Shown piece by piece: positions 5,576 to 52,820 of a stretch of DNA of 64,000 bases (positions within the stretch are counted from its first letter, which is position 1; the number at the start of each line of letters is the position of its first letter). The notes beneath the pieces are model-generated. The model was not told the origin of the DNA. It worked only from the letters and a program-made list of their open reading frames with translations, and ran no database searches. The position numbers and the translations under genes were made by a program. This DNA comes from Laetmonice hystrix (Eukaryota), in the NCBI GenBank assembly GCA_965235115.1, contig OZ249436.1, forward strand, positions 33,358,001 through 33,422,000, in the 5' to 3' direction.

Positions 5576-5865
5576 GGGTAGCTTAACCTCGAGTCGCCCA
5601 CCCACCTTGAGTCACCGACCCCATTAAAGGCCCAGCCCCATATGCCCGATTCCCTCCGACTCGATGGGGTCGGAGGGAATTGGGTATATGGGGCCAGGCC
5701 TTTACTCTGCATTGGTTATGGCCAACCCATTACAACTAACGTTATCTGAAAGCCCATATTTTACTCTTTCTTGTAGTTTTAGTATTATCCACCAGAGGTC
5801 AGATGGTTTTTATTTAGGGTGGGTGGGCAACTCAAGGTGGTAGGCGCCTTGAGGTGAATCTACCC
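5576..5865. mobile_element. TA-flanked MITE (Tc1/mariner-pogo-like)
   Basis: Imperfect ~45-bp TIR GGGTAG.TT.ACCTC...CCACCTTGAGT; TA on both sides. Confidence 0.65.
5628..5701. mobile_element. 74-bp hairpin MITE (Harbinger-like) nested in the previous MITE
   Basis: Near-perfect hairpin AGGCC...GGCCT flanked by TAA/TTA. Confidence 0.6.
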
Positions 5866-7483
5866 TAGATCTATTGGTACAGATAAGAATTGGTGCTGTT
5901 TCTTTATTTGAATATTTCTCTACAAGTCATCCACATTAACCCAGTAATGATAGTGCATTGGGGAGAGACATTAGCTCATATTTATGTGCTGTTCTGCTGT
6001 CTATGGGCTACATACTTACAAATAAAATAATGTCAATAAAATCAAGTGTCCCTATTATTTTACAGAGGCATAGCTTGCGTTAAATCATAATACTATGATA
6101 ATAGTAAATCCATGTGCAGCCATTCTTTAACTACTCATGCTGCAGTGCAGTGCACATGTCCTATAGAGACATAATCCAGTAAATTATATGGCAATATTGA
6201 CTTTGGATTCACAGGATACTGAAAAGTTCCTGATTTCATTATGAAGTTGGCTGTAACTTATTACAGAAGATGTGCCTCCTAATCTGAATTATGTACCGGT
6301 AGTCTGCAGTAGATTATTTTGACAGTGAGCATGAGCAGACTCTGTGCGTTGGTTCCCAGATTCGGCGATGTACTAGGTGGATAAAGACGGGGCTGTGTCC
6401 TTCTATATCTCTGACATCTGTCCAGGTTATGGCCCAATATGGAGGTTAGAACACCATTTTTCACTTATATACATTATGGCAAGGATGTTTTTAATCTTTG
6501 GATTAAACTGTTCTAGAGACCAAGTTGTAAAACTCGAATATATTGCAAGGGTGTGCTTTTCTTTGGTTTAAACCTATGAATTTAATCCTACTACGTGGAA
6601 GGTTTAGGTTTAGGTTTCTGAGGTGACGGGTCCCAAACAGCAAAATCATCTGACCCAGGTGACTTGTCTTGTGTGATGCGCCAGTCATAGACGGTTCTGG
6701 TGTCACAATCATACAGGAACTTGCTGACCCAGTTGGATTGTCGTGTGTGACACGGTGTGTCATTAGACCCATTTGACTGGCCGTTTTAGTAAAGTAAATT
6801 TTCACTTTCGCAGTGGCCTAATTTCTGAAAGGTAACTTAATGCATGACCAGCATAGCATAGTTCTGTCAAAATGTTCTGGCCATTTTTGCCTCTCTGCAT
6901 CGACTGTTGAAAGTCTTCTGTCCAAGACGAGACCCCACAGGAATAATTTTACTGATGTAAAATGTGGTTTACCAATAACAACAATTTTTAAAAGGGCCTT
7001 TGTAGCAGTGGCAGTTTGATGGTGAGTCATGCCACAGTTACTACTAGGTGTCAGCACTGCATCAGTAGGATCGTTACCAGAGCAGCTCTGTTCAGTTTCA
7101 GGTATCCATATTAATTAATATTATTAATATAATGTTTGAAATGTTATCATATGAAGTAACCCGTTTAAATTTCACATAGATCCAACTGAATTTGAGCAAA
7201 TTGAAGTTTAGAGCATGTGTACTCTAGTCTAGACGTCAAGCACTTACTGAGTGAGTTTCCAGTGTGCCACACGCTCACTTGGTCACTTTGGTCTTGTAGC
7301 CAAGGATTTGGCTTTACTAAATCTTTTATATCTCTGGTTACATTCAAAGGATTACAATTTAGTAACCAGTTTTGGAAATTTCGGGTCATGGGCTATCAAG
7401 TGAATATAAAATCTCAAAATCGATTTTTTGACAGGATAGGCTGGAAATCGCGTGTGCTGTCACATATGATGTGTATGTTGTTC

Positions 7484-7576
7484 CACTAAGTATATTGTTG
7501 AAAAGAATGGTTTAGGAGACTAAAGTAAACTTTACTTTAGTCTCCTAAACCATTCTTTTCAACAATATACTTAGTG
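7484..7576. repeat. Perfect palindrome, 46-bp arms with 1-nt spacer
   Basis: 7484-7529 is the exact reverse complement of 7531-7576. Confidence 0.95.
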
Positions 7577-7947
7577 TAAAGGTCCCTTTTACTATGCAGT
7601 ATTCTAACATTGTTTTTGCAGTAAAGATGGCTTGAGATGCTGACCACTATGATGTAAAACCACCATTACTCACTCATTTTCTCATTTAAAAAAAATATTT
7701 TCAGAAATTATCTAAGTTTGAAGGATAATGTTTAAGTCTTGTTAAAAGAATTAACTTTTGAGAATTTTACACTTACCTTTCTTTGTCAAACCGTCAGTAG
7801 AAGTTGAGTGCGCATAACATGGTCCTGACGACTCTTTCACTCAGTGGAAAAATGGACGGTCTTTCAAGGGAAAGCTTTAGAATAGGTACGATTCCATCAG
7901 ACCTTGATAGGGCCCAGTGGGCCATTATGATAGATATTACTGGTGCC

Positions 7948-15600: not shown

Positions 15601-18001
15601 CGAGTAGAATATTGCATGCGATAGTTAAGATGGCTGTAAAATTGAATGCACTTCCTCAAAATGGAACGGTTAAAGTGAACTTGTGGCCCTCAATTGCGTG
15701 TTCCCTTAAAATAATACATAAATGGTACAGAAGTAGTACAAAAGCCGGACAAAGAAACAAAAAATCGTTGTCACTGGAGATAGGTATTCATTGAGAAAGC
15801 ATTTCAGGAAGGCCTTCTGTTACTCAAATATTCACTTCAGTTACCCCCAACAGAAGCACCGATGAGCACAAAATACTCAGTCTGGTTTTCACCATCGTAT
15901 TTGAATACGTGCACCGCCCTTTCATTCCTTCCTCAGATCCCAGTCAATCTGACAGAGGCAAACTGACTCTTGTTATCCTTGCTACCCCTGAGTTTACAGA
16001 CGGGCAACAAGAAGTTTCACTAGTAGTCGGAGCCCCAGACCCCAAAAATGGCATTTTTTCGACACGGAATGGTAGAAAATTTCCAATGGTACTAGATCAA
16101 AGAGAAACCCATGGGGGTTTATGCATCAGGGTCAAAAAGGTCCAGATGTGTTGCCGTTGCCATGGAAACGGTTTAGAACTTGGTTTTGGGCCAAATTTTA
16201 CTAAATTCACTTTTTATTAAATAATTCTGGAACAAAGATTCACATTTTAACCAAACCTTGTAGGATGCTGGTTAGAGAAATGCTCCTTCAGAATGTTCTT
16301 GCTTTTGACCTTTGACCCCAAGGTCAAGGTCACCGGAACTCAAAGAATGGCTAAAAATGGGGTATTTTAAACATATGACTTAGGACAGTTTCAAAATGAG
16401 ATAGAAAAAAATGACAGAGACTATTTTGGTGTATGCCATTGGAAAGAGGAGACGATTCTGCTTTAGTGTACCAAATATTATCCAGATCTGTGCATATTTA
16501 CCTCTGTTACCAGTTGTTTCATTACATAGCTGCATAGTGCCCATATCATCATTATGCCTATATCGTCCAGGTTTTGCATGGATCTAGTGTGGAGGGTAAG
16601 TCCACTCAGACCAAAGAATCGTTCATTTTGTGATAAAGTCATGAAATTTGGCATGTGTATGTATACATTAACATGTGCTTAAAAAACCTAGACCAATTGG
16701 CATCCAAAACAAAATAAAATTGGGGCTGTTTTGGGTTTCTGTTGCCTAGCAACAGTAGCATGCTTAGCAACCAGCTTTTTATATGGCTCCATGGAGAAAA
16801 GAAAACACTTATCTTGACTAAAGTGATATTAGGGGTTCCTGTGGTCACATCAGTCATTTCGTAATACCAGCCCGTTGCCTAGCAACAGACATGAATATTG
16901 AAATTTCCGTAGCAACCGGCTGCTCCAACCTAATATATATATAGATTTAAGAAGAAAAACCAGCACAAATCAGTGTCCAACATATCATTGTATATATTAT
17001 ATAGTCAGGTAGAATGTTACTGTTGCCTAGCAATAGAGTTTGATGCCCCACCTGAGATTTTTAGCCCCCACAACGGGGGGCTTATAATTCGCCCTCCGTC
17101 CGTACGTACGTACATGTGTACATGTACGTGTCCGTAGACAGCGATTTCTCAGAAGTGTATAGGTCGATTAACGATCGGGGATGATCTGAGTATGATGCAC
17201 GTCAAAGAGATCTTTTATATCATTCACATTCACATAATTTACATCCAAGATGGCCGCCTTGGCTTGGATGTAAACACATTTTGAGTAATAACTCAGCCAA
17301 AACAATCACGATTTCTTTCAAACCTGGTACAGGATGGACGCATAATCATGGCCAATAATGCATCGCAATGTAATCTCAATTCAGATCCAAAATGGCCACA
17401 TGGCGGCCATATTTGTTTTTTGACCCCACAATGACACTGTTTTGGCTTATATCTCGAAAACGGTGCAAGATGACGCAATAGTTACTATTATTGATAGATA
17501 GGAAGTCATATATGAAGTTTCATTTGGCATCATTTGCCATGACCTTGAGCGACCTTGAAAGGTCAATCAAGGTCATGCATATTTAATGGCCTGTACCTCC
17601 AAACCAGTTGAAGATAACAACATGTAATCTTGCATGAAACATGACATAATAACCTGGGACAGTCTAAGGAGGACACATGTCAAACATATCATTAAAAATG
17701 GCTGCTTGGTGGCCATCTTGGCTATAAAGAAATTCGAAGCAATAACTCTGACATTTTCTGGATTTCGTTTTTGGTGACAGAAGGCGTGAGGGGCAACAAC
17801 CGTGCCAAAAGTACGCATAGTTCCTGGACCCACAGATATTAGACCGTTTCCAAGTAACTTCCAAGACGCCCGGTTGTTGCTAGGTCTGTGAAACGCACCC
17901 TAACAACGCGTTCTTACTGTGTGTGTCAGTTAGACTTATTGTCCAGATTAAGTACAGATTTTGTTGGCTTTTGTGCATTGTGAGATACAATCTTAAGCCA
18001 A

Positions 18002-21435: not shown

Positions 21436-23329
21436 CCTATTAGGTTAGAGCAGACCGTTGCTAAGGAAATTTCAGACTGCATATCTATTGCTGGGCAACA
21501 GGCTAGTGCTACAAAATAACTGATGTTACCATGTTAATCTCTGATTTGGGGGGGGGGGGGTAGGTGCCATTGTTTTTATTTCCTGGGACCATATTATGAA
21601 ACTGGTTGCTAAGCATACTACTGTTGCTAATCAACATGATCCTAAACCAGCCATGTGTTAATTATGAGCTGTACAATTGGTTTGGTTGTCTGCCCCACCT
21701 TAAGTCCACCCCAAAAGCTCCACTCAAAGAGACGGCTTAGCTTGATGTCCACCATCTAAAAAATCCCAGCTGCAGCTTCATACTCTATTGCTAGGCAACA
21801 GTAACATTCTACCTGACTATATATATATACAATAAAATGTTGGACACTGAGTTGTGCTGGTTTTTCTTCTTAAATCTATATATATTAGGTTGGAGCAGCC
21901 GGTTGCTAAGGAAATTTCAATATTCATGTCTGTTGCTAGGCAACGGGCTGGTATTACGAAATGACTGATGTGACCACAGGAACCCCTAATATCACTTTAG
22001 TCAAGATAAGTGTTTTCTTTTCTCCATGGAGCCATATAAAAAGCTGGTTGCTAAGCATGCTACTGTTGCTAGGCAACAGAAACCCAAAACAGCCCCAATT
22101 TTATTTTTTTTGGATGCCAATTGGTCTAGGTTTTTTAAGCACATGTTAATGTATACATACACATGCCAAATTTCATGACTTTATCACAAAATGAACGATT
22201 CTTTGGTCTGAGTGGACTTACCCTCCACACTAGATCCATGCAAAACCTGGACGATATAGGCATAATGATGACATGGGCACTATGCAGCTATGTAATGAAA
22301 CAACTGGTAACAGAGGTAAATATGCACAGATCTGGAAAATATTTGGTACACTAAAGCAGAATCGTCTCCTCTTTCCAATGGCATACACCAAAATAGTCTC
22401 TGTCATTTTTTTCTATCTCATTTTGAAACTGTCCTAAGTCATATGTTTAAAATACCCCATTTTTAGCCATTCTTTGAGTTCCGGTGACCTTGACCTTGGG
22501 GTCAAAGGTCAAAAGCAAGAACATTCTGAAGGAGCATTTCTCTAACCAGCATCCTACAAGGTTTCGTTAAAATGTGAATCTTTTTTCCAGAATTATTTAA
22601 TAAAAAGTGAATTTAGTAAAATTTGACCCAAAACCAAGTTCTAAACCGTTTCCATGGCAACGGCAACACATCTGGACCTTTTTAACCCTGATGCATAAAC
22701 CCCCATGGGTTTCTCTTTGATCTAGTACCATTGGAAATTTTCTACCATTCCGTGTCGAAAAAATGCCATTTTTGGGGTCTGGGGCTCCGACTATAGTCAA
22801 TATATTCATTCCCAGACACTGCAACAAAGTGCAGAACATATTCTATAGCATATATTTTCTTTTCATTTTGTCTAACAAAAGTTAATTTTTTTCATGAACC
22901 CGCTGCCAACATATTTTATGTGACTCTATAATGCTCCACAGATTGCTTCGTTCAGCAGGGCCTGGGTAAAGTGAGTCTGTTGTGGGACATTAAGGGGCGG
23001 GCAGTCTGGCTGATGGTTGGGTTTGGTGTGTGCCGTCGGGTGACACAGGCGGCAGTCTGTGTGAGGGGACACGAGCTGTCTGACGGCCGTCACTTCGCTT
23101 TCATCCCGGGGCCGGAGTGGCCAGGCCTGATAGTGACCGGTGTATAGCAAGCCGCACAGAGCAGGGATAAAGCCCCACAAAGGCGTTATCTGACCCAGGC
23201 TGACGCTCCTCTGACATGTCTGACCTCCGCCTTTTGAGGGTCACTTGTCAGCAGGCTCCGGGTGACTGGCACCTATAGACAGGGTCTGAGGCTGGCAGGG
23301 TGCTCCGGTCGGTCCGTACCTCAGAAAGT

Positions 23330-37180: not shown

Positions 37181-40100
37181 TATAGAATAAACACAGATGG
37201 GTTATTTTACTGCTATTAATCTTATGGGTTGACGGTAAATAATCAGATCTTTATATAAAATTTAAATCAAGAGTGGTGTGGTATTGGTAGGCATTGGTCC
37301 GTATTGCAGTGGGGAGTACCCTTCGTCAGAGATAATAGATTTTCAGCATGTGCACGAGCAAAAGCGAAACCAGGTTGCAAATGTACTTGATTATTATGAC
37401 ATGCATTGCAATTGTGCATGAATGAATGCATTACAGATGAGGAGTGGGGAGTTATCTATTTCAAGAGTCGGAATAGAATCACTGTTTTTCAATAGATTCA
37501 CAACTGTGTAAACTTCCTTACAACTGCATGCAGTAGTGCTCCTATTTGATTGACGACAGCCTCGAAATTTGCCCCCTAATATATACTTATCTCTAAGAAT
37601 TTTCCCCCTTAAGCTACGATATAGGAAATGTCCCGGGTTTCAAATCCCATTAAATACAGTTTTAACTCTATAGTATTTAGAATGTTAACGACATCCATGT
37701 TATGGCAAAGCAGTAGGACAGATGCAACAGGCGTTTATTTATACCTCCATTTTATAATTTATCAGAATTTAATTTGAGAAAATGTTGCCTTGGACAACGT
37801 GTCTCCTGAAGAACGTCCTACGTCCTACGTCCCACTCCAAGGCCACGGACAGAGGAAATGGGACCATGCAGCCAATGGAAGCCCGGTTGACAGGGAGACA
37901 CTATACCAGCAGCTAATATGAGAGTGTCAACATTCCTGAACGATACTTGTAATCTATCAGCGTCCTCAGTGGGGTTCGGGGTTCGGTCCCGGATGACGTC
38001 ACCTCCCTGCAGGTCGTCGTGTCCGTACCTCCCGCCAGGGGTCGGAGCCGGACAAAGTGCGGGGAGGATTCAGACGGTAACGCGATCACTCCCAACTTAG
38101 CCATCCCCTACCCCTCGCCGGACAACGCTCAGTCAACACTAGATAGACTTATGATGACTGATAAGAGGACCGGGCTTTCAATTAGATGGCAGTATAGCGT
38201 GGTCAGCGAGAGGTATTACGATTGATTGCCGACTTGACGACGGCTAGGATTTCACCGACCACAATGTGATGTATGTCTGACTGCAGCAATCGGATCCAAT
38301 AATCTTGCTTGCTGAATTCATCACGTGGGACATCTAAACTACGCCAGGAGTTGGAGGGGGAGCCTTGGGTTGTCAATAAACATACGTGAGCTCAGCGGAT
38401 GTGCAACTATGAAAGGCGTTGATCTAGAACAGGGTGCAGTTTATCTAAACTTAGGTTATTAAAGGAATAATGTCAATTATTTCATATAGATTTTACAAAT
38501 TGGGGAAAATACTGCTTGTATATAGTCTGGTAATTATGTTCCATAGCACTGCTTACTTGCCTGATTGGATTTCGTGAATATGTTTTTAAAATATTTAAAA
38601 AAACAGCAAATTTGGAATGACGCGTGTCTTTTTAGCTGGGCGACTTTACACCCTTTTCACAGAACGCGATAGTCGCAATCACGTGATCATCTCACCCGTT
38701 GCAACGCTATGTCTGCAGGTCAGACATTCCATGGCGGAAAGTAGCGTTGTTTTTGAGTGTTCCCGACAAGAAATGTGGAATGTGAAGATGACAGTGCATG
38801 TCGCTGCTGTCTGTTTACAATACATACGTATATTAAACCTAGGAAGTATCCTCGGGACAGAAGGTGCATAGATTTTGACGAGGTAAGCGTGAAACCAGGT
38901 CGAACTGGCTTCCCGGAACGCTCAACCAGGGTGACATGATTCCTTTAAGCTTATGAAGTTTCCCACTATTGATTGGTTGGTCTGAAGTCTAAAGTTCCGA
39001 TTAGATGCTCTCCGATTGTTACTGTTGGGATTAATCTCACTGGTGTCTCAGGACGAAGGAATCCATGTTAAGAATGTCACTTTTATCGGTATTAGATATC
39101 GATATCGGATAGAGTTTCTGATCCCGAAGGAAATAACTAAAACTTTGTCGCTGTGTCAGCGTCATATCCCACTCCACACATGAATGAAGCATACACAGAT
39201 ATGTTAGAGCTATGAGATTGAATCAAAATGCAGATTTCTTAGCATCTTACAGCTGCCTAGGATTTAGTGATAGTGCATAGCCAGAATTCGGGCAATAAAT
39301 TGACACGATGCCTGTTTTGTTGTAAGCCTGGTCCTCTGAAGCAGTATCAGAAGTAGATCGTACTGAACTGTTGGGTACTTATCCTTTCACTTTGATAAAA
39401 TTTCAGTCACTGCTTCAAAGGAGAATGGTATAGAAAAGTGATGGAGATATGTTGGAATAGACGAGGTATATTTATGTTGGTCTCAGGGCCTGAGGGCCAC
39501 TGACACTGCCTGCTCAGGCCATGCCCCATTTATTCTGCCAGGAACGATCATGGGGAAGAAGGGGTATATAATTATACTGTACAGCCTTTTCACAGAACTG
39601 ATCACAACCAGCAAGAGAAACATTGTGCGTGTCGTATAAGTGAGTTAGCCAAAGTGCGCCCATAAAGTGTACACGGAGCAACAGGATTACATGTTATCGG
39701 CGGGAAGTTGACTTGGCAGAATTTAAACAGCAGTCGTTATGCTGCATGTTGAATGTGTGCCTGGGGCTGGTACACACGGGACGGGGGCGTGAGAAAGACG
39801 CTTGATGGCGCCCAGCCGGGATGGCTGCCGGCCGCGGGGATTTGTATCTTCTGATGTGATAGTCTCGGCAGCATACTGGGAGACCGTAATCACCAGCCTA
39901 CTGTGGTCACTTGTGGGCCATCGTCGGCCATGTTTACATATCTGTGTCCTAATAACAGGCTGGATCAGAGGACAGCAATGACTTGCAGGGAGAGGTGGGG
40001 AGGGACATGTTGGGGAATCATCGAAACTAAGGGGTTCTCAGTGTCTTGGGTAGATTTCTTAAATCAAGGGCAGGGGTTTCCCTTAAAGATTTTTTAAAAC

Positions 40101-43100
40101 TCGGTGCTATATATAAGAGTTGCTCGGATCATAGCCTTAACAAAATGTCTGCGTTGTTAGGCTTCCTGGCGCTGTTAGGACTTATTTGTAAGTGTGATGC
40201 TCTGTGGCTTGAGCACCTTGACTTCTTTCATTGATCATGCGAGGTGAGGGTATAGCATTGACTGCTGATGGGAGTGGTCTTTTATTTCTTTATTCAACCC
40301 ATTCCGCATTAATAGGAAGGTTTGGGAATCTTGTCTCACTGGATTCTGTTTTCTATATAAGAAACATGGCTGGCTACGGTTCCTCTGCTGGAGGTACCAT
40401 AAGGCGTAAGTTAGCTCGGGTTCTTTTATCAGAATAATGAAGAATATCTGAACGCCACAGCTGATCATTCGTAAGAATATCAAAAAGGCACTAGGTGATG
40501 ATCAATCGTAATATATCGGATCAACTTAAATTATGTTGTTCTTGTTGGTGAAGAAATACCAGACTCATTAGGTTTTTCTACCAGAGCCTAGAGAACAAAG
40601 CATTCCACGGTGGTTGTCAGTGTCAACTATGAAACGAGTCATTAGTAATAATGTTATCCAACATATATGGATTTCGTGTTCTGTTAATGCCTGTTGGCCC
40701 CACGGAGTTAGACAGACGACGGTTTTCATTCATGTCACACAGATGAATATAACCCAGTGGGATATTCTATCGATTGCAGCTGGAATAGCAGGAGCTTTGG
40801 TATAGTTACCAGCTTTCTTGCTGGTCCATGAGACAGAAACAGTCGGAGAAACAGGAAACCAAACCACTTAGCAGGAATTCAAACGTGCATAATTAGCGGG
40901 GACTATTGTAAAGAAGTTGGAATATCATGTGCAATACACCTAAGATGCTAGTCTTAACATTTCGTTGTGCCCCATTCAATAGAAGGGGGCGTTTTCAAGT
41001 GGATATTATGATGGCCCAAAAGAGCAAACGATCAAAAAGAACAAGCTGATTTGAGCCAGTGACATGGCATGTCGCCCGAGTCTAGTTGTCCGCAAATGCT
41101 TCCATTCAAAAAGGTAAAGGATTACACAAAGAATAGTCTTAAAGAGGGGCACATTCTGAATCCTTTAAATTTAAATTTTGCGAATAGGTCCATTAGAGCC
41201 ATCGTACAGAAGTGCGTTCGCTACCCTTCGCTGAGCCCTGTGCTCAACCCTGGGAGAGAGAGAGAGTGGTTGCGATGATAATGGGAATCTCCAACATGGG
41301 ATTGGTAACGTCAGAAATAATGCTCTTAAGCTATTTAAAACCCCCGTTTTATAATGTTGGACCGATGATGGCATTTCATTACTAATTATGATTTATTTCA
41401 ATGTTATCGACATGCCCCAAAATGTGCACATCCCCTAAGGAACAGAGCATCCTAACCTCAACATCAGGGTTACATACATAGCAATGTATGATAGCAGTTC
41501 CATCCGTATGAAACAAACACGGTCACATAGTCCCAACTAAATGTTTATTCGTGATATAAAAGGAGAACAGAACAGAGCAAAACTCTAAATAAGCCTACTA
41601 ATAATAAATAATTTCCCATTATTTCCGATTTCAGTCTGCAGTCCTTTGATCTGGAGTACCGTTAGCGTCTCAGAATTCCTCAGAATTTTTTCAAAGCCAG
41701 AGAAGAATTTGGTGTCCCCAGGTGTCTAACTTTTAATGCTAAAAGGGTGTGCAACTCACTTTGCAACTACTGTACCAGGTTACTTTTTGAATCATTGTTC
41801 TACACATCCGGAAGCTAGATGTATGTTATTGAAGTGTAGAGAGACTCAGGAATAAATGTGATTCAGTAAATCCGGGTCAGCTATCCGCTAGGGAAAGCTC
41901 CGTCCCGAAATGGATAATGGCACTGTCTTTGACTCATTGACGGAGGCCGGCAAGAGGCATTAGCATCCTCCAACAATTTTACCTGCTCAGCATCCCGAGT
42001 GATGGCTAGACACCTAAGCAGAGTAAAATTAATGTTCGATTGTCTAAAGTCGTGTCTTAAGTTTATTTTTATTTTCTCGATCCCAACCAGAGATGACGGG
42101 ACGTTAAAAAAAGAATTTTTATAGATTCTACGACACATGTAAAACACGTATAAACTTGTCGAGAATGTTCCTTGTATAGACACACCGTTTGTCAAGATTA
42201 CATTTTGTTGTTTAGTTTGGTGTATTACCAGGGGTAGTGTATTGATTAAACTTCCCATGCTGTCTGCCCTCCAACCTCCGAGACCATACGTCGGAGTCGA
42301 CGTGTCAGGACAGTGACGTAGGTAGAGACCGGTGACGTTGCGTCTTTGACGCATCCTCTATCATGTACGCCCTGCGCCGTACGGGTCAAGGCCTGCCCCA
42401 CCCCCTCACCTGCCACTGCTGGCCGCTCAAAACGGACTCGGAGGCATTTATTGACGGACAACGTCAAATCAAGGCTGAGGTCGGGACGTGTCGTTGCCAC
42501 AATAGGGGGAGTGAATCGAAGAAATGCAAAGAAAAAAAGGGTGCTAGCATCTAATTTTGAATTCCAACCAGTTATGCTGATCTAAGTTCGAGGGATGAGA
42601 GTAGCATTGTAATGAATTTGTTTTCTCTTTATTTATCTCTAAAGAACGATGATTGCAAACTAAATAAAATAATAACTTTTTCGTGAGGCATTGCCAGGGT
42701 TGGGGTCGAATACAACTTTTCAGATACAAATCAATACAAATACAGTATTTATTTAAAATTCCAAATAAGGCAAATATTGTATTTAAATGCTCAAATACAA
42801 TTATTTTGTCTTAAAATACAAATAAATACAAATATTTTAGGTTTTGGTCGCCAACAATAAAATATTGTACAAATATTTTCGTCCATTTTTGTTTCAAAAA
42901 ATCGAATGTTAAACATCAAGTTTTAAATTCATATAGCTGCCGACTAAGTGACAGCTAGTTTGAAGATCTTATGTTTTTAAGATGCAATAACGCTAAGATA
43001 TGTGATATACCACTACGTCAAGTGTACCTTAGAAGACAACCTTGTGTGATTTTATATAAAGGTAGCCATTATTTATTTAAGTCGTTTGAGACAATACCAT

Positions 43101-43374
43101 TATTTATGTGATTGTTAAAGACCATCTACTTATACTGGAAGATGGCTATTTAATGCCAAATACAAGGACAATTATACGTATTTAACCCGAACCCTGGGCA
43201 TTGCGTGATGTTTTTTCCTGGTATGTTTAATATTTTCACATTGTTGCAGTCAGGATGATTCGTTAAACCAAGGTTATCCGTGACATCATAAGTTTACAAG
43301 GAGAGCGAGTGAAGGGTTATCGAGGAAAACGAGGCGGATACGCCATCATAATCAGCCAGCCTACAGTAACACAA
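37181..43374 (+). repeat. Tandem segmental duplication, copy 1 (6.2 kb)
   Basis: Near-identical to 43378-48794; the same ORFs recur at offset ~6198 in the track. Confidence 0.95.
42695..43196. mobile_element. hAT MITE with 8-bp TSD (copy 1)
   Basis: TIR CAGGGTTSGG; TSD GGCATTGC on both sides; AAATAC subrepeats. Confidence 0.85.
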
Positions 43375-43377
43375 GAA

Positions 43378-46300
43378 TATAGAATAAACACAGATGGGTT
43401 ATTTTACTGCTATTAATCTTATGGGTTGACGGTAAATAATCAGATCTTTATATAAAATTTAAATCAAGAGTGGTGTGGTATTGGTAGGCATTGGTCCGTA
43501 TTGCAGTGGGGAGTACCCTATCGTCAGAGATAATAGATTTTCAGCATGTGCACGAGCAAAAGCGAAACCAGGTTGCAAATGTACTTGATTATTATGACAT
43601 GCATTGCAATTGTGCATGAATGAATGCATTACAGATGAGGAGTGGGGAGTTATCTATTTCAAGAGTCGGAATAGAATCACTGTTTTTCAATAGATTCGCA
43701 ACTGTGTAAACTTCCTTACAACTGCATGCAGTAGTGCTCCTATTTGATTGACGACAGCCTCGAAATTTGCCCCCTAATATATACTTATCTCTAAGAATTT
43801 TCCCCCTTAAGCTACGATATAGGAAATGTCCCGGGTTTCAAATCCCATTAAATACAGTTTTAACTCTATAGTATTTAGAATGTTAACGACATCCATGTTA
43901 TGGCAAAGCAGTAGGACAGATGCAACAGGCGTTTATTTATACCTCCATTTTATAATTTATCAGAATTTAATTTGAGAAAATGTTGCCTTGGACAACGTGT
44001 CTCCTGAAGAACGTCCTACGTCCTACGTCCCACTCCAAGGCCACGGACAGAGGAAATGGGACCATGCAGCTAATGGAAGCCCGGTTGACAGGGAGACACT
44101 ATACCAGCAGCTAATATGAGAGTGTCAACATTCCTAAACGATACTTGTAATCTATCAGCGTCCTCAGTGGGGTTCGGGGTTCGGTCCCGGATGACGTCAC
44201 CTCCCTGCAGGTCGTCGTGTCCGTACCTCCCGCCAGGGGTCGGAGCCGGACAAAGTGCGGGGAGGATTCAGACGGTAACGCGATCACTCCCAACTTAGCT
44301 ATCCCCTACCCCTCGCCGGACAACGCTCAGTCAACACTAGATAGACTTATGATGACTGATAAGAGGACCGGGCTTTCAATTAGATGGCAGTATAGCGTGG
44401 TCAGCGAGAGGTATTACGATTGATTGCCGACTTGACGACGGCTAGGATTTCACCGACCACAATGTGATGTATGTCTGACTGCAGCAATCGGATCCAATAA
44501 TCTTGCTTGCTGAATTCATCACGTGGGACATCTAAACTACGCCAGGAGTTGGAGGGGGAGCCTTGGGTTGTCAATAAACATACGTGAGCTCAGCGGATGT
44601 GCAACTATGAAAGGCGTTGATCTAGAACAGGGTGCAGTTTATCTAAACTTAGGTTATTAAAGGAATAATGTCAATTATTTCATATAGATTTTACAAATTG
44701 GGGAAAATACTGCTTGTATATAGTCTGGTAATTATGTTCCATAGCACTGCTTACTTGCCTGATTGGATTTCGTGAATATGTTTTTAAAATATTTAAAAAA
44801 ACAGCAAATTTGGAATGACGCGTGTCTTTTTAGCTGGGCGACTTTACACCCTTTTCACAGAACGCGATAGTCGCAATCACGTGATCATCTCACCCGTTGC
44901 AACGCTATGTCTGCAGGTCAGACATTCCATGGCGGAAAGTAGCGTTGTTTTTGAGTGTTCCCGACAAGAAATGTGGAATGTGAAGATGACAGTGCATGTC
45001 GCTGCTGTCTGTTTACAATACATACGTATATTAAACCTAGGAAGTATCCTCGGGACAGAAGGTGCATAGATTTTGACGAGGTAAGCGTGAAACCAGGTCG
45101 AACTGGCTTCCCGGAACGCTCAACCAGGGTGACATGATTCCTTTAAGCTTATGAAGTTTCCCACTATTGATTGGTTGGTCTGAAGTCTAAAGTTCCGATT
45201 AGATGCTCTCCGATTGTTACTGTTGGGATTAATCTCACTGGTGTCTCAGGACGAAGGAATCCATGTTAAGAATGTCACTTTTATCGGTATTAGATATCGA
45301 TATCGGATAGAGTTTCTGATCCCGAAGGAAATAACTAAAACTTTGTCGCTGTGTCAGCGTCATATCCCACTCCACACATGAATGAAGCATACACAATTAT
45401 GTTAGAGCTATGAGATTGAATCAAAATGCAGATTTCTTAGCATCTTACAGCTGCCTAGGATTTAGTGATAGTGCGTAGCCAGAATTCGGGCAATAAATTG
45501 ATACGATGCCTGTTTTGTTGTAAGCCTGGTCCCCTGAAGCAGTATCAGAAGTAGATCGTACTGAACTGTTGGGTACTTATCCTTTCACTTTGATAAAATT
45601 TCAGTCACTGCTTCAAAGGAGAATGGTATAGAAAAGTGATGGAGATATGTTGGAATAGACGAGGTGTATTTATGTTGGTCTCAGGGCCTGAGGGCCACTG
45701 ACACTGCCTGCTCAGGCCATGCCCCATTTATTCTCCCAGGAACGATCATGGGGAAGAAGGGGTATATAATTATACTGTACAGCCTTTTCACAGAACTGAT
45801 CACGACCAGCAAGAGAAACATTGTGCGTGTCGTATAAGTGAGTTAGCCAAAGTGCGCCCATAAAGTGTACACGGAGCAACAGGATTACATGTTATCGGCG
45901 GGAAGTTGACTTGGCAGAATTTAAACAGCAGTCGTTATGCTGCATGTTGAATGTGTGCCTGGGGCTGGTACACACGGGACGGGGGCGTGAGAAAGACGCT
46001 TGATGGCGTGAATACAAAGTATTCACCGGTGGTTGTCAGTGTCAACTATGAAACGAGTCATTAGTAATAATGTTATCCAACATATATGGATTTCGTGTTC
46101 TGTTAATGCCTGTTGGCCCCACCGAGTTAGACAGACGACGGTTTTATTCATGTCACACAGATGAATATAACCCAGTGGGATATTCTATCGATTGCAGCTG
46201 GAATAGCAGGAGCTTTGGTATAGTTACCAGCTTTCTTGCTGGTCCATGAGACAGAAACAGTCGGAGAAACAGGAAACCAAACCACTTAGCAGGAATTCAA

Positions 46301-48794
46301 ACGTGCATAATTAGCGGGGACTATTGTAAAGAAGTTGGAATATCATGTGCAATACACCTAAGATGCTAGTCTTAACATTTCGTTGTGCCCCATTCAATAG
46401 AAGGGGGCGTTTTCAAGTGGATATTATGATGGCCCAAAAGAGCAAACGATCAAAAAGAACAAGCTGATTTGAGCCAGTGACATGGCATGTTGCCCGAGTC
46501 TAGTTGTCCGCAAATGCTTCCATTCAAAAAGGTAAAGGATTACACAAAGAATAGTCTTAAAGAGGGGCACATTCTGAATCCTTTAAATTTAAATTTTGCG
46601 AATAGGTCCATTAGAGCCATCGTACAGAAGTGCGTTCGCTACCCTTCGCTGAGCCCCGTGCTCAACCCTGGGAGAGAGAGAGTGGTTGCGATGATAATGG
46701 GAATCTCCAACATGGGATTGGTAACGTCAGAAATAATGCTCTTAAGCTATTTAAAACCCCCGTTTTATAATGTTGGACGGATGATGGCATTTCATTACTA
46801 ATTATGATTTATTTCAATGTTATCGACATGCCCCAAAATGTGCACATCCCCTAAGGAACAGAGCATCCTAACCTCAACATCAGGGTTACATACATAGCAA
46901 TGTATGATAGCAGTTCCATCCGTATGAAACAAACACGGTCACATAGTCCCAACTAAATGTTTCTTCGTGATATAAAAGGAGAACAGAACAGAGCCAAACT
47001 CTAAATAAGCCTACTAATAATAAATAATTTCCCATTATTTCCGATTTCAGTCTGCAGTCCTTTGATCTGGAGTACCGTTAGCGTCTCAGAATTCCTCAGA
47101 ATTTTTTCAAAGCCAGAGAAGAATTTGGTGTCCCCAGGTGTCTAACTTTTAATGCTAAAAGGGTGTGCAACTCACTTTGCAACTACTGTACCAGGTTACT
47201 TTTTGAATCATTGTTCTACACATCCGGAAGCTAGATGTATGTTATTGAAGTGTAGAGAGACTCAGGAATAAATGTGATTCAGTAAATCCGGGTCAGCTAT
47301 CCGCTAGGGAAAGCTCCGTCCCGAAATGGATAATGGCACTGTCTTTGACTCATTGACGGAGGCCGGCAAGAGGCATTAGCATCCTCCAACAATTTTACCT
47401 GCTCAGCATCTCAAGTGACGGCTAGACACCTAAGCAGAGTAAAATTAATGTTCGATTGTCTAAAGTCGTGTCTTAAGTTTATTTTTATTTTCTCGATCCC
47501 AACCAGAGATGACGGGACGTTAAAAGAAGAATTTTTATAGATTCTACGACACATGTAAAACACGTATAAACTTGTCTAGAATGTTCCTTTTATAGACACA
47601 CCGTTTGTCAAGATTCCATTTTGTTGTTTAGTTTGGTGTATTACCAGGGGTAGTGTATTGATTAAACTTCCCATGCTGTCTGCCCTCCAACCTCCGAGAC
47701 CATACGTCGGAGTCGACGTGTCAGGACAGTGACGTAGGTAGAGACCGGTGACGTTGCGTCTTTGACGCGTCCTCTATCATGTACGCCCTGCGCCGTACGG
47801 GTCAAGGCCTGCCCCACCTCCTCACCTGCCACTGCTGGCCGCTCAAAACGGACTCGGAGGCATTTATTGACGGACAACGTCAAATCAAGGCTGAGGTCGG
47901 GACGTGTCGTTGCCACAATAGGGGGAGTGAATCGAAGAAATGCAAAAAAAAAGGGGTGCTAGCATCTAATTTTGAATTCCAACCAGTTATGCTGATCTAA
48001 GTTCGAGGGATGAGAGTAGCATTGTAATGAATTTGTTTTCTCTTTATTCATCTCTAAAGAATGATGATTGTACATGCAAACTAAATTTAAGATAATAACT
48101 TCATTTTCGGGAGGCATTGCCAGGGTTGGGGTGGAATACAACTTTTCAGATACAAATCAATATACAAATGTACAGTATTTATTTAAAATTCCAAATAAGG
48201 CAAATATTGTATTTCAATTTTCAAATACAAATATTTTGTCTTCAAATACAAATAAATACAAATATTTTAGGTTTTGGTCGCCAACAATAAAATATTGTAC
48301 AAATATTTTCGCCTATTTTTGTTTAAAAAAATCGAATGATAAACATCAAGTTTTAAATTCATATAGCTGCCGACTAAGTGACAGCTAGTTTGAGCATCTT
48401 ATGTTTTGAAGGTGCAATAACGCTAAGATATGTGATGTACCACTACGTCAAGTGTGCCTAAGACAACCTTGTGTGATTTTATGTAAAGGTAGCCATTAAA
48501 AGTCGTTTGAGACAATACCATTATTTATGTTATCGTTAAAGACCATCTACTTATACTGGTTGATAGCGTATTTAATGCCAAATACAAAGACAGTTACGTA
48601 TTTGACCCGAACCCTGGGTATTGCGTGATGTTTTTTCCTGGTATGTTTAATATTTTCACATTGTTGCAGTCAGGATGATTCGTTAAACCAAGGTTATCCG
48701 TGACATCATAAGTTTACAAGGAGAGCGAGTGAAGGGTTATCGAGGAAAACGAGGCGGGTACGCCATCATAATCAGCCAGCCTACAGTAACACAA
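43378..48794 (+). repeat. Tandem segmental duplication, copy 2 (5.4 kb; lacks ~39811-40590 of copy 1)
   Basis: Head-to-tail junction ...TAACACAA-GAA-TATAGAATAA...; indel junction near 46008. Confidence 0.95.
48121..48616. mobile_element. hAT MITE with 8-bp TSD (duplicated copy)
   Basis: Same TIR; TSD GGCATTGC / GGTATTGC. Confidence 0.85.
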
Positions 48795-49445
48795 AAACTC
48801 CGCTCCTTGTCAAGGGAAACTTTAATTTATGTGATCTAGCATGTGCATGATTGAGATAAGAAAGTATCTGGTTGAAATTAGGTGATACGGAGTCTCGCCG
48901 TTCTTGGAAGTGTGCGAATTACTTCGATATACGATATGGCAATAGAGGGCTACTCGGTGTGCACAGGGATAATAGCATAGGCCACATGCCATGTGGCCCC
49001 ATTGTCACTTCAGTAAAGTGGTAAACTATGTTTATTAGCTGCTTGCGAGATATGGCTAGTGATAAAATGTATGGAAAGCCAAATACCATGTATATTTCCA
49101 GCATGATTTTAAATTATCTGGCGTTCTTTGTAGTTCTCATTAAAGATAAAATTAATTCAACACAACCATTTTCATCTTTGATAATAATTGAGTAATGAGG
49201 ACATTTCTTCAAAGATCTTTTTGTGACAATTAATTTGAGAATACAGAATTTATTGTGAGGAAATAACTAAGGGCATTGCGCTGCTTTCGTAATGTTAGTA
49301 AGATCGAGGCAACACTGAATTCCTTTTAGGTAAAATTTTAAAAAAGAGAACGCACAGATGTGTGTTGTTAATAAAATCGATCCTTGTAATGTACCCTCGA
49401 TACTGACTAAAATGGATGACCTTTTATTATAAGTTTGAGGGTGCC

Positions 49446-50864
49446 TTTTTATTACCCCTTTGAGGTGAACGGAGCAATCTGATTGGCTGAAGCTACTGTG
49501 CTGATCAATCTCTCCCAGGGTTCACCGCGCGGGCGGATTTCACCTCTGTGGACATCTAAACAAAATGCACAAAATTTGAACATTCGATGTTCCCACCAAT
49601 ATCATCTAGAAATTAGTATCAGTCATTTTTCTGTTTGTCCCCGACTTTACAGAGCAATGACACACATGTCATGTCATGGACTCTTTGCATGGAATTTTGA
49701 CTGATAACTGAGGAACTCTATCTTCGGACGGGTATTACTGGGGTATGTAATAAGGTCAGTGAACAAGTCGTGTAAATATACATTCGCCGGTTGTCAAGAT
49801 TACGAGGGTACGAAATTGTAACGTCACAAACTTTGCCGATCTCCGGCGATGACAGTGCTTGGTTACGAAAGGAGGGACCTTCCTAAACAATTCTAAGTCT
49901 GTGACATTGTTTGGTTCAATATTTTATTCCCTTATGTCAAGTTTCGACGTCCGTCCTTGTGTATTTTAGGAGTTAGGGGCGTTTGAACTGCCAAAGCGAA
50001 GCACCGTCCGCCATTATATTTAGGCCCCGTTATGATCACATTCCATTGTGACCCATTGTGACGTAGCGCTATTGTGAATTGTTCCTGACGTCGCTGACAT
50101 TGACAACGTGCCACACGTGCTCGTTGTTGCCCTGGTTATTGTCTAAAAAGATAGTCCCGGTTAGATGTCAACAGAGGTGAAATCCGCGCCATCGTCCCCG
50201 GCGCGGTGAACCCTGGGAGAGATTGCTGTGCTGATACGGAATCCGTATCAGCACAGTTCTAAATGAAGCACATTGATTGGTTAGGGAGGCGTGTGATACG
50301 GATATTCGAAATCCTGTATCAGTCGCCTTCACTGACCCAGATACACCTTGACCGAGTTTTATGACCAATCAGTGGCGAGTATTTCATTGAGGGGGCGTGG
50401 CCTAATTCAGACCGTCTTCGCCGAAAACTGGGCCAGCACCTCGATAATTCTCAAGAACACTGAATTAAACTGACTCAGCAGTCCTCGGAACTCTGACTCA
50501 ACTCGTTCTCAACGTTTTTTATGCATAATTCAAAAGTTCTCAAGCTTAGCAAACTTTCGTACGTCTTGAAATACATGTTTTAGTCGATCTAGCGGAGCAG
50601 CTCGGTGGACAGTTTCCTCTCTACAAAGTTTAAGTTACGTCACTGATAACAAACGACGACGTCACAAATAACAAACGATGATGACATTTGTTGCCTAGCG
50701 CATAGATCGATTTTGAACAAACGACGACGTCACAAATAACAAACAACGGTCACGTTTGTTGCTTCAAGTAGATCGTAGACCTAGTATGGTTTTTCCTCTT
50801 GATCGTGCCAAAATGTTATTTCTTAGATGCATAATATCCGTTACATTGTAGAAAGGGGTAATAA
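49446..50864 (-). mobile_element. Inverted, diverged copy of the core of the palindromic-TIR element, interrupted by a 720-bp insertion
   Basis: 50226-50864 and 49446-49505 are reverse complements of ~51034-51709; both ends are TTTATTACCCCTT. Confidence 0.85.
49506..50225. mobile_element. 720-bp non-autonomous TIR element with 10-bp TSD
   Basis: TIR CAATCTCTCCCAGGGTTCACCGCGC...GATTTCACCTCTGT.GACATCTAA; TSD CTGTGCTGAT at 49496-49505 and 50226-50235. Confidence 0.85.
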
Positions 50865-51876
50865 ATAGACAGGAACGACCGAGTGTGCTGATACGGAAAG
50901 CTGTATCGGACGAGGCGGCAAGCGCGGAGTAATATCAGCACGAGCCCGATAGGGCGAGTGCTGATGTAAAACTCCGCGCTTGCCGCCGAGTCCGATACAG
51001 CTTTCCGTATCAGCACACGAGTTTGTTCCTGTTTTTATTACCCCTTTCTACAATGTAACGGATATTATGTGACTAAGAAATAACATTTTAACAAGATCAA
51101 GAGGAAAAACCATCCTAGGTCTATGATCTATATACTTGAAGCAACAAACGTCACCGTCCTTTGTTATTTGTGACGTCGTCGTTTGTTCAAAATCGATCTA
51201 TGCGCTAGGCAACAAACGTCATCATCGTTTGTTATTTGTGACGTCGTCGTTTGTTATCAGTGACGTAACTTAAACTTTGTAGAGGGGAAACTGTCCACCG
51301 ACTCCTCCGCTAGATCGACTAAATCATGTATTTCAAGACGTCCGAAAGTTTGCTAAGCTTGAGAACTTTTGAATTATGCACAAAAAACGTAGAGAACGAG
51401 TTCAGTAAGAGTTCTGAGGACTGCTGAGTCAGTTTAATTCAGTATTGTCTGTCCCAGTTTTCGGCGAAGACGGTCTAAATTAGGCCACGCCCCCTCAATG
51501 AAATACTCACCACTGATTGGTCATAAAACTCGGTCAAGGTGTATCTGGGTCAGTGAAGGCGACTGATACAGGATTTCGAATATCTGTATCACACGCCTCC
51601 CTAACCAATCAGTGAGCTTCGTTTAGAACTGTGCTGATACAGATTCCGTATCAGCACAGTAGCTTTAGCCAATCAGATTGCTCCGTTCACCCCAAAGGGG
51701 GAATAAAAACAGGAACAAACTCGTGTGCTGATACGGAAAGCTGTATCGGACTCGGCGGCAAGCGCGGAGTTTTACATCAGCACTCGCCCTATCGGGCTCG
51801 TGCTGATATTACTCCGCGCTTGCCGCCTCGTCCGATACAGCTTTCCGTATCAGCACACTCGGTCGTTCCTGTCTAT
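50865..51876. mobile_element. 1012-bp non-coding element with identical 175-bp TIRs that are themselves quasi-palindromes (possibly Crypton-associated)
   Basis: 50865-51039 is the exact reverse complement of 51702-51876; each folds on itself around GCCC-GATA-GGGC; AT-rich flanks, no clear TSD. Confidence 0.85.
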
Positions 51877-52379
51877 ATATCGGTGCTATTATGCAGCTAT
51901 AATGGCCAGGGTAAGTTATAGTATGGTCTGGGCATAGGTGAACCGGATTACATCCATCTCTTGGTTGATACTCTTCTATATGATGCGACACAAGTTGTCT
52001 TTGAAGTCATCAACATATGATATTGTGGCTCTATACGTGTTTCTCGAAAGTGGTCCTTTATCTGTTAAAACCTGAGGCAGAAAGCCGAAAAATTAATTTA
52101 CGTATCATTTAATGTATTGTCCAGAGTGCTTTTGACTCCTGTGAGCCCATTTGATGTGGCGCAGCTCCGGTAAGGCACCCAGGAAATATTTGTGATCGCT
52201 ATCTGTCATTTGCGAGCTGTCATTTGCGAGATGATGACTTCCGAGGGCGGCGATTCTGTATTGTAATGACTTTATTGTCACTCTGGCTTATGCCTCTGTA
52301 TAAAAGTGTACCTTCTTCTAGGATAGTATAGAGTACAACAGGGAAAAAACTCCCAAATCAATGCGAATGGTATTAACGC

Positions 52380-52820
52380 ACCTTGAACTGGAAGGACATG
52401 GCGCAGCAAGAGAGGTAGGCTGTTCAAGGTTGAAGGAAAGTATGCGGCAACCGAAGGGTATAGTTTAAGCCTTCTTTTTCTATCAATATGCTTAGTCAGA
52501 TGTCTGTAGCCTATACTCAAAGTCGGTGGGTGAAGGTGACAAGGGCCCCTTCCTGATTTTAGTTCAGGGGCTTGTCATTGAGTGCAGCGATAAGTTGTAA
52601 AGTCGCCATTGCTTCACGTAAACCCATTGGTTCTGGTAACTTTCAGACCTTTTTTTTATATGGTGCGTTGCAGTATCCAGGTATTAAACCTGCGGCTTTG
52701 CGTAATGATGAGAGGGCATTGATGTGTTGAGAATGTGAAGCTTGGTTCGTGGTGCGGCCAGGAGGAACAATTGATGATGACCTTCAATAGAGACCGCTCG
52801 GGTTTGGGGATATGGGATGA
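52380..52820 (-). mobile_element. Scraps of L2/CR1-type LINE ORF2 3' end
   Basis: Frameshifted LIPYP..R..LRSSS..LLAAPRTKL and SVAA....LNSLPLLLRH resemble the L2/CR1 C-terminal consensus. Confidence 0.4.

Follow-up and report, generated by a model that had tools for sequence, protein, structure and literature searches.

Between positions 49446 and 51876 of a 64,000-nucleotide stretch of Laetmonice hystrix DNA (contig OZ249436.1, positions 33,358,001 to 33,422,000 of the forward strand; hereafter the window), two inverted copies of one core meet on a hairpin. The question raised by this locus is how such a palindrome arose, by replication through a hairpin-ended intermediate or by the landing of one mobile element in another. 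We named the repeat family to which both copies belong N1, and its sister family N2. The locus is a nested self-insertion, in which a young N1 copy (A), in reverse orientation, interrupts the inner repeat of an older one (B), with no base gained or lost. Its best explanation as a whole, to which we assign a probability of about 0.8, is nested self-insertion within a non-autonomous family of Crypton-type DNA transposons.

Two copies of N1 in one palindrome

Self-comparison of the window revealed inverted arms of 187 nt (50861–51047 and 51694–51880) that are 99% complementary, inside or next to a palindrome (50226–51659) that is 90.5% self-complementary. The left core picks up again at 49446–49505, beyond a 720-bp insertion. 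The inverted left core and the palindrome of about 1.4 kb had been recognised in the original prediction, as had a mini-palindrome reusing a motif of the hairpin arms, which is present at 50226–50257 and again at 51629–51660. That prediction had also read 50865–51876 as one element with two 175-bp hairpin terminal inverted repeats (TIRs). The arms and their imperfect hairpins are real, but the single two-TIR element was a misparse: the N1 unit carries one hairpin, in constant orientation to the core (30 loci mapped), which rules out a two-TIR unit.

When position 50864 was joined to 51707, the N1 family sequence was restored exactly. The core of A shows 3 mismatches to three dispersed relatives, whereas that of B shows 18 to its nearest relative. 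Since the core of A is near-identical to its relatives, B is diverged and removal of A from the sequence restores B, it is A that landed in the inner repeat of B. A young copy aimed at an old one, the latter more diverged and interrupted by an insertion, is also what had been proposed beforehand. Read on the opposite strand, the inner repeat of B looks like the start of N1 itself. The 1.4-kb palindrome is a by-product of this self-targeting and not a new replication intermediate.

The opposite view, put forward in the original prediction, is that an inverted dimer was formed through a hairpin-ended intermediate, by rolling-hairpin replication or protelomerase resolution, and was then integrated. 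It draws on the imperfect hairpin at the centre of the palindrome and on one arm-converted copy, which indicates that template switching in the hairpin can occur. Identity between the two cores, however, is only 90.5%, and each has a nearest relative of its own, so they are not the products of one replication, and removal of 50865–51706 leaves a unit that is normal to the base. Nor were flip and flop isomers found: the inner repeat was followed by the normal arm in 49 rows, by a flipped arm in none and by another sequence in one (rows may repeat across overlapping loci). Genome-wide, the flipped-end pattern gave 2 matches against 167 for the normal inner arm, and both come from one duplicated, truncated N2 copy (L228 and L229; C3:19965 and C22:444465) whose outer hairpin arm bears the letters of the inner arm. 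In this event the hairpin underwent conversion or a template switch locally. We regard a hairpin-ended dimer as very improbable. Still less credence is given to an assembly artefact joining repeat copies: no listed contig covers the whole stretch, as such an artefact would have it, but the junctions sit exactly on family ends and target motif, the outer limits agree with an allele that lacks both copies, and the same nest occurs at a separate N2 locus.

The 720-bp element that splits the core of B is flanked by an exact 10-bp duplication, CTGTGCTGAT, at 49496–49505 and 50226–50235, and its read depth is several hundred times that of the flanks. It belongs to a very abundant repeat with split terminal inverted repeats, CAATCTCTCCC, and a duplication of 9–10 bp suggests a Mutator-like family. 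In the window it sits in the N1 mini-palindrome, while at another locus (L078) an N1 unit sits inside a different 720-bp copy. The motif GTGCTGATAC in the mini-palindrome is a candidate recombinase-binding repeat. No long coding frame was found at the locus in the window, 49000–52500 gave 0 Rfam matches, and no RNA dataset was listed as containing the locus sequence. The features are collected in Table 1.

Table 1. Features of the nested N1 copies A and B (window coordinates).
Feature	Position	Strand	Basis
Old host copy B, part 1 (outer short repeat, core split by the 720-bp insertion, most of inner repeat)	49449..50864	+	ends defined on 38 complete units
Outer asymmetric inverted repeat of B, TTATTACCCCTTT, hairpin-free end	49449..49461	+	family ends
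Non-coding 720-bp element unrelated to N1, with its own terminal inverted repeats	49506..50225		flanking 10-bp duplication CTGTGCTGAT
Mini-palindrome of B core	50226..50256		contains GTGCTGATAC motif of hairpin arms
Inner inverted repeat of B, AAAGGGGTAATAA, landing site of A	50852..50864	+	family comparison
Young copy A, 842 bp, inverse orientation	50865..51706	-	complete unit, both family ends
Terminal hairpin of A	50869..51032	+	fold; two C[GA]G/C[GA]G loops, C(GATA)G tip
Inner inverted repeat of A	51035..51047	+	family comparison
Mini-palindrome of A core	51629..51659		self-comparison
Outer inverted repeat of A, one substitution relative to the family	51694..51706	-	family ends
Old host copy B, part 2 (rest of inner repeat, terminal hairpin, family end CTGTCTAT)	51707..51876	+	family ends; empty allele

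Ends, target sites and self-targeting

The host genome (627 Mb) was searched for exact N1 end patterns, which yielded 47 ends with the hairpin and 52 without it; most of them form pairs about 860 bp apart. From the hairpin-free end, a unit consists of T/TTATTACCCCTTT, the core, AAAGGGGTAATAA, the 170-bp hairpin and CTAT/, where the stroke marks the junction with the flank. It opens with T/TTATTACCCC, the outer repeat, of which the inner repeat is the inverse, and TTATT opens all 43 distinct N1 ends. The N2 unit is 646 bp long, with 118 exact hairpin ends, a 13–14 bp repeat pair of its own and a core unlike that of N1; the hairpins of the two families are about 88–90% identical. At C21:9355816-9355846, the repeat after an N1-type hairpin end, TTATTATCCCTTT, resembles the known ones without being identical and may belong to a third sister family.

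At the locus itself an allele without A and B was recovered, in which contigs from three of four runs, all of one sample, pass from 49452 to 51896 with only four intervening letters. This empty allele has no target site duplication (TSD), and its outer limits agree with 49449–51876. The earlier view that the family is mobile is supported. Directly after the element the empty allele has T and the filled one A, and there are indels nearby; since the haplotypes differ at many neighbouring sites, plain polymorphism is likelier than an excision footprint. Paralogous empty sites are likewise without TSD; two of them (L051, L030) lie in tandem repeats and one (L078) in another copy of the 720-bp element. 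Ordinary TSDs, one of the outcomes envisaged at the start, were thus found neither at the empty allele nor at the paralogous sites.

In 37 non-self N1 flanks, the base after the hairpin end was never C, and the following positions were T (34), A (27) and T (27); the same bias was seen in 28 N2 flanks. The base preceding N1 was T in 40 of 43 cases. The resulting target, T/D-T-(A>C)-(T>C), matches the first bases of the element itself, and microhomology with the target is limited to the shared T. The crossover is sharp: 38 of 38 full units start TTATT, and in 16 of them the first target base is A or G.

A genome-wide pattern search for hairpin ends abutting a family-type repeat returned 20 exact junctions, against fewer than 0.1 expected by chance (0.002–0.07 with about 165 ends, the target frequency being taken from the 64-kb window). 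Six were N1-N1, nine N2-N2 and three mixed N1/N2, these 18 being head-to-tail; one was the nest in the window and one was unclassified. A second inverted nest, of N2 (L149), had been missed by the junction pattern owing to a one-base variant end, so the arrangement seen here is not a one-off. In all five N1 tandem pairs the neighbours differ by 15–38 mismatches, and one partner or both can be matched to a copy elsewhere in the genome at 0–4 mismatches, which argues that arrays grow by separate insertions. Unit divergence and mixed-family arrays rule out replication concatemers. These data show that N1 and N2 strongly prefer the short repeats of resident copies as landing sites, in agreement with the site-specific integration at its own termini that had been suggested for the element. 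Insertion at the outer repeat gives a head-to-tail array, and insertion at the inner repeat, facing the opposite way, gives the order core'-hairpin-core-hairpin' seen in the window. At another locus (L076, C3:10804309-10806892) two N1 units lie back to back, with their outer repeats 12 bases apart, and one of them has a third unit after it.

The recombinase partner and the terminal hairpin

Longer hairpin-bounded coding copies were sought in 20 regions with unpaired ends and none was found, the longer ones being N1 units with insertions. At one of 30 phage-integrase loci (L121, on C5), an N2 hairpin end stands behind a broken tyrosine-recombinase gene; the other 29 gave no hairpin match. The gene pieces match Pfam DUF3504 (PF12012, E 4e-16, above the cut-off) and Phage_integrase (PF00589, E 1e-10), and the R, HxxR, H and Y motifs were seen in them. 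The element is present in three copies. The C5 copy (about 2.3 kb) comprises the 5' region, the recombinase as its sole gene and the hairpin end; the C4 copy is bounded by N2 base 1 on one side and N2 base 646 on the other and holds the gene, split by insertions, between them; in the C3 copy neither end is left. Neither a reverse transcriptase nor a DDE gene of the element was found, the other frames of the C4 copy lying in insertions absent from C5 and C3. The Crypton-type tyrosine recombinase that had been listed among possible partners is the one found between N2 ends, and a DDE partner is not. N2 and the coding element have both ends in common, at 81–86% identity. Since the C4 element with exact N2 ends brackets the gene, N2 is shown to be a deletion derivative of the DUF3504 recombinase element and to have such a recombinase as its mover.

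With this element and N2, N1 has in common the hairpin (88–90%), the layout and the target, and N1 and N2 are mixed in arrays. On these grounds the same enzyme is inferred for N1, and the N1/N2 family is probably moved by a Crypton-type DUF3504 tyrosine recombinase. A related frame (L188) is 37–43% identical to the recombinase pieces. A structural model of it (23-row alignment, predicted local distance difference test score (pLDDT) 81) gave QRICH1 as best fold match, followed by Cre, the Tn1549 integrase and Xer (XerH).

Within 3 kb of DUF3504 loci a family hairpin end was found in 2 of 29 cases (0.04 expected), counting exact end patterns only, with 147 of the 165 ends listed. By the same count, none of the 125 Helitron Rep matches had one within 3 kb; at a limit of 15 kb there are two (0.88 expected), both of them ends of short but complete N2 units. 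This comparison bears on another possibility, that N1 and N2 are non-autonomous Helentron-type (Helitron2) elements moved by RepHel, the recombinase gene being captured cargo. Asymmetric 13-bp repeats, a 3' hairpin, a T-flanked target and the lack of TSD all fit HINE and Helitron2, and most of the Rep matches are in long open frames. The lack of any Rep match near a family end nevertheless leaves a RepHel partner without support, and N1/N2 similarity was not detected in two 20-kb RepHel regions, which stop short of the RepHel ends. Moreover, the layout is common to unrelated DUF3504 families, and the hairpin measures 170 bp against palindromes of 5–10 bp in HINEs. We therefore consider a RepHel origin unlikely. 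The Rep matches themselves are of Helitron type, more than 100 of them in open frames of 2,000–3,600 amino acids (L277–L280); two RepHel copies of more than 18 kb are 96% alike, and for this reason the group looks recently active.

The terminal hairpin folds at -83.5 kcal/mol (z = -20.7), and none of 200 shuffled sequences was as stable. Read on the plus strand of the window, the hairpin of A forms a C(GATA)G tip and two C[GA]G/C[GA]G loops; that of N2 has two GA/GA loops and a C(GAA)G tip. Comparison of N1 with N2 shows stem changes in both arms (for example, AAGC/GCTT to ATTC/GAAT and GCCC/GGGC to GTGC/GCAC), with the loops unchanged. Both tandem G.A pairs and GNA loops add stability to folded DNA. 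Among 14 hairpins chosen by eye from DUF3504 loci and N1/N2, 10 have GA/GA loops, all on the strand with the G-started tip. An unbiased scan for the tip motif was positive at 8 of 30 DUF3504 loci of this genome (some belonging to one family), at none of 30 Helitron loci (Rep region only) and at 2 of 30 other integrase loci, both of which are DUF3504 loci; shuffled sequences gave none.

Similar ends recur elsewhere. The flanks of 20 further DUF3504 loci were covered to about 1.5 kb, nine stretches slightly further. Long DUF3504 frames of this genome include one of 413 amino acids (C1:45631775 and C8:29416065) and one of 427 amino acids (C2:39211700), in families with defined ends. L203 and L204, with long open frames and unrelated sequence, carry a hairpin plus TTAGCACAC at one end and GTGTGCTAA at the other, and L197, a single copy with a long open frame, has candidate ends formed by a 12-bp repeat pair, the second member directly before a hairpin. 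In a metagenome contig (L238, 309–366) a hairpin upstream of a related recombinase has a 16-bp stretch in common with the N1 arm (E 0.09), which may be a conserved binding motif or due to chance. Another multi-copy family (L111, L116–L120, L122, L123 and others) has a 401-amino-acid tyrosine-recombinase frame, a perfect inverted repeat pair of 92–96 bp and a hairpin after the frame; its layout points to a DIRS-like element.

At the junction in the window the stem is extended by 14 pairs (50852–50865 with 51034–51047), because the repeat of B pairs with the inner repeat of A. At natural end-to-end junctions the outer and inner repeats likewise pair, adding about 14 pairs to the stem and leaving two unpaired bases beside the crossover. 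A mechanism may be proposed from these features. The element would leave as a circle, and pairing of its outer with its inner repeat would complete a long stem with bulges, enclosing the point where the two ends are joined. The recombinase would then act on the folded GA strand and exchange one strand with the duplex target, and replication would complete the exchange, as in integron attC x attI recombination. In this integron-like reading, the GA/GA loops and the GNA-type tip would mark the substrate strand. Single-strand exchange is favoured by the invariant TTATT start of the 38 units, 16 of which have A or G as first target base. We put the whole sequence of circle, folded-strand substrate and single-strand exchange finished by replication at even odds at best. 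That a DUF3504 recombinase recombines folded single strands is a tentative proposal, which we hold at somewhat under even odds, and the same reserve applies to a branch of animal DUF3504 Cryptons with integron-like chemistry, whose site would exist on one folded strand only, after end joining, and whose arrays would be cassette-like.

The same element and recombinase might instead use ordinary duplex recombination through a circle of the Cre or Tn916 kind. The hairpin would then serve as an additional array of binding sites or as a signal for transcription or replication, and binding of the protein to the short repeat would account for self-targeting. The classical Crypton model, as given in the available text of PMC3212892, is a duplex circle. 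Cre gives the best enzyme matches to our model, and GTGCTGATAC recurs as inverted pairs with 7–16 bp spacers in hairpin and core, like duplex binding sites. Yet unrelated families have all kept GA/GA loops and GNA tips on one particular strand, a feature that would be meaningless in a duplex, and target bases were carried to the element's own end in none of the 16 informative units, where heteroduplex overlap might give such cases. Duplex recombination is thus possible, at odds clearly short of even.

Several observations weigh against the reading adopted here, of a self-inserting Crypton-type family with a folded substrate. N1 is not a deletion derivative, its core having only short matches to the recombinase element; all three partner copies are broken, and an intact gene that could move the young N1 copies did not turn up. 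The layout of N1 closely mimics Helitron2/HINE ends, small 5' hairpin included, in a genome with 125 Rep matches. Four of the 14 hand-picked hairpins have no GA/GA loops, and the signature is weak outside the host genome: each strict scan detected it at 1 of 45 metagenome loci (in 1 of 46 loops in the second) and inspection by eye at 4 of 45, many of the metagenome contigs being short and long hairpins being a frequent cause of breaks in short-read assemblies. IntI (2a3v) ranked 38 in the fold search, below Cre. No contig was seen bridging the inner A/B junctions, and no circle or single-stranded form was observed among the contigs, in which a circle junction would look like that of a genomic tandem.

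Elsewhere in the window, left of the locus, a recent tandem segmental duplication of about 6 kb was found (37181–39810 with 43378–46008 and 40595–43377 with 46014–48797; 97–99.5% identical). Foldback-like inverted repeats of 1 kb (16016–17062 and 21759–22800; 98%) surround about 4.7 kb with internal repeats, and two further short near-perfect palindromes lie at 7481–7579 and 5625–5704.

Significance and comparison with known systems

With N1 and N2, the way in which animal Cryptons recognise their ends can be reduced to a short biochemical test: their ends are fixed at single-base precision, and they supply a target motif, an empty site that is polymorphic and a specific candidate substrate. 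According to the available text of PMC3212892, the animal Crypton recombinase is the source of domains of human ZMYM, QRICH1 and KCTD1. Our results also imply that ends which look Helentron-like by structure alone can belong to recombinase-driven elements. If true, recombination on a folded strand would be a case of a eukaryotic tyrosine recombinase whose substrate is a folded single strand of DNA.

The likeness to Helitron2, Helentrons and HINEs consists of asymmetric short inverted repeats with the 3' repeat directly before a terminal hairpin, a 5' T, insertion beside T and the absence of TSD (PMC3627910, PMC4067079, in their available text). N1 and N2 differ from Helitron2 and Helentrons in that the partner found is a tyrosine recombinase, their hairpin is about ten times longer and their target bias spans four bases. 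In HINEs, as far as the accessible parts of these sources describe them, the 3' repeat is 20–60 bp from the end, against about 170 bp in N1.

In attC x attI recombination, as described in the available text of PMC2727003, the substrate is a folded bottom strand that carries unpaired bases, and the first exchange is resolved when the DNA is replicated. N1 and N2 would resemble attC in having a tyrosine recombinase, an imperfect palindrome whose strands fold differently, unpaired bases near the crossover, a single sharp crossover, a site completed by end joining and arrays built by repeated single-site insertion; the likeness in strand-specific unpaired bases is a structural analogy only. Unlike integrons, N1 and N2 are eukaryotic, have no attI platform or gene cassettes, are associated with a DUF3504 enzyme with no special likeness to IntI, and owe their proposed strand choice to sequence features alone. 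One-strand circle formation by bacterial tyrosine recombinases is described for SE elements in the accessible portion of PMC9345347; these are bacterial, have four genes and, in that portion, no attC-like hairpin.

Among Cryptons, CryptonV is cited as microsatellite-specific in the available text of PMC8869645, through which we know it, and it thus resembles N1 and N2 as a tyrosine-recombinase element with target specificity. In the parts at hand, PMC8969392 names only short direct repeats for Crypton ends, PMC5753468 ties the Eulor5/6 termini to salmon Cryptons with the termini not described, and PMC4455052 merely lists Crypton groups. In the literature covered we found no description of hairpin-plus-asymmetric-repeat ends or of self-targeting in Cryptons; Repbase Reports, Dfam and subscription reviews were outside this scope and may hold one.

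The nearest known system is CryptonA, defined together with its non-autonomous derivatives by Kojima and Jurka (2011; PMC3212892), whose available text reports that no terminal repeats were found in animal Cryptons and whose supplement has 'n.d.' in the terminal column of two CryptonA rows. We read 'no terminal repeats' in that text as a description, not as a defining rule, and it is there that N1 and N2 depart from it. Like CryptonA, the family has one DUF3504 tyrosine-recombinase gene with R-H-R-Y motifs, abundant non-autonomous derivatives, which in the case of N2 keep both ends, and no TSD. It differs from CryptonA in its base-exact ends, asymmetric 13-bp repeats, strand-asymmetric hairpin of 170 bp, target motif and strong self-targeting.

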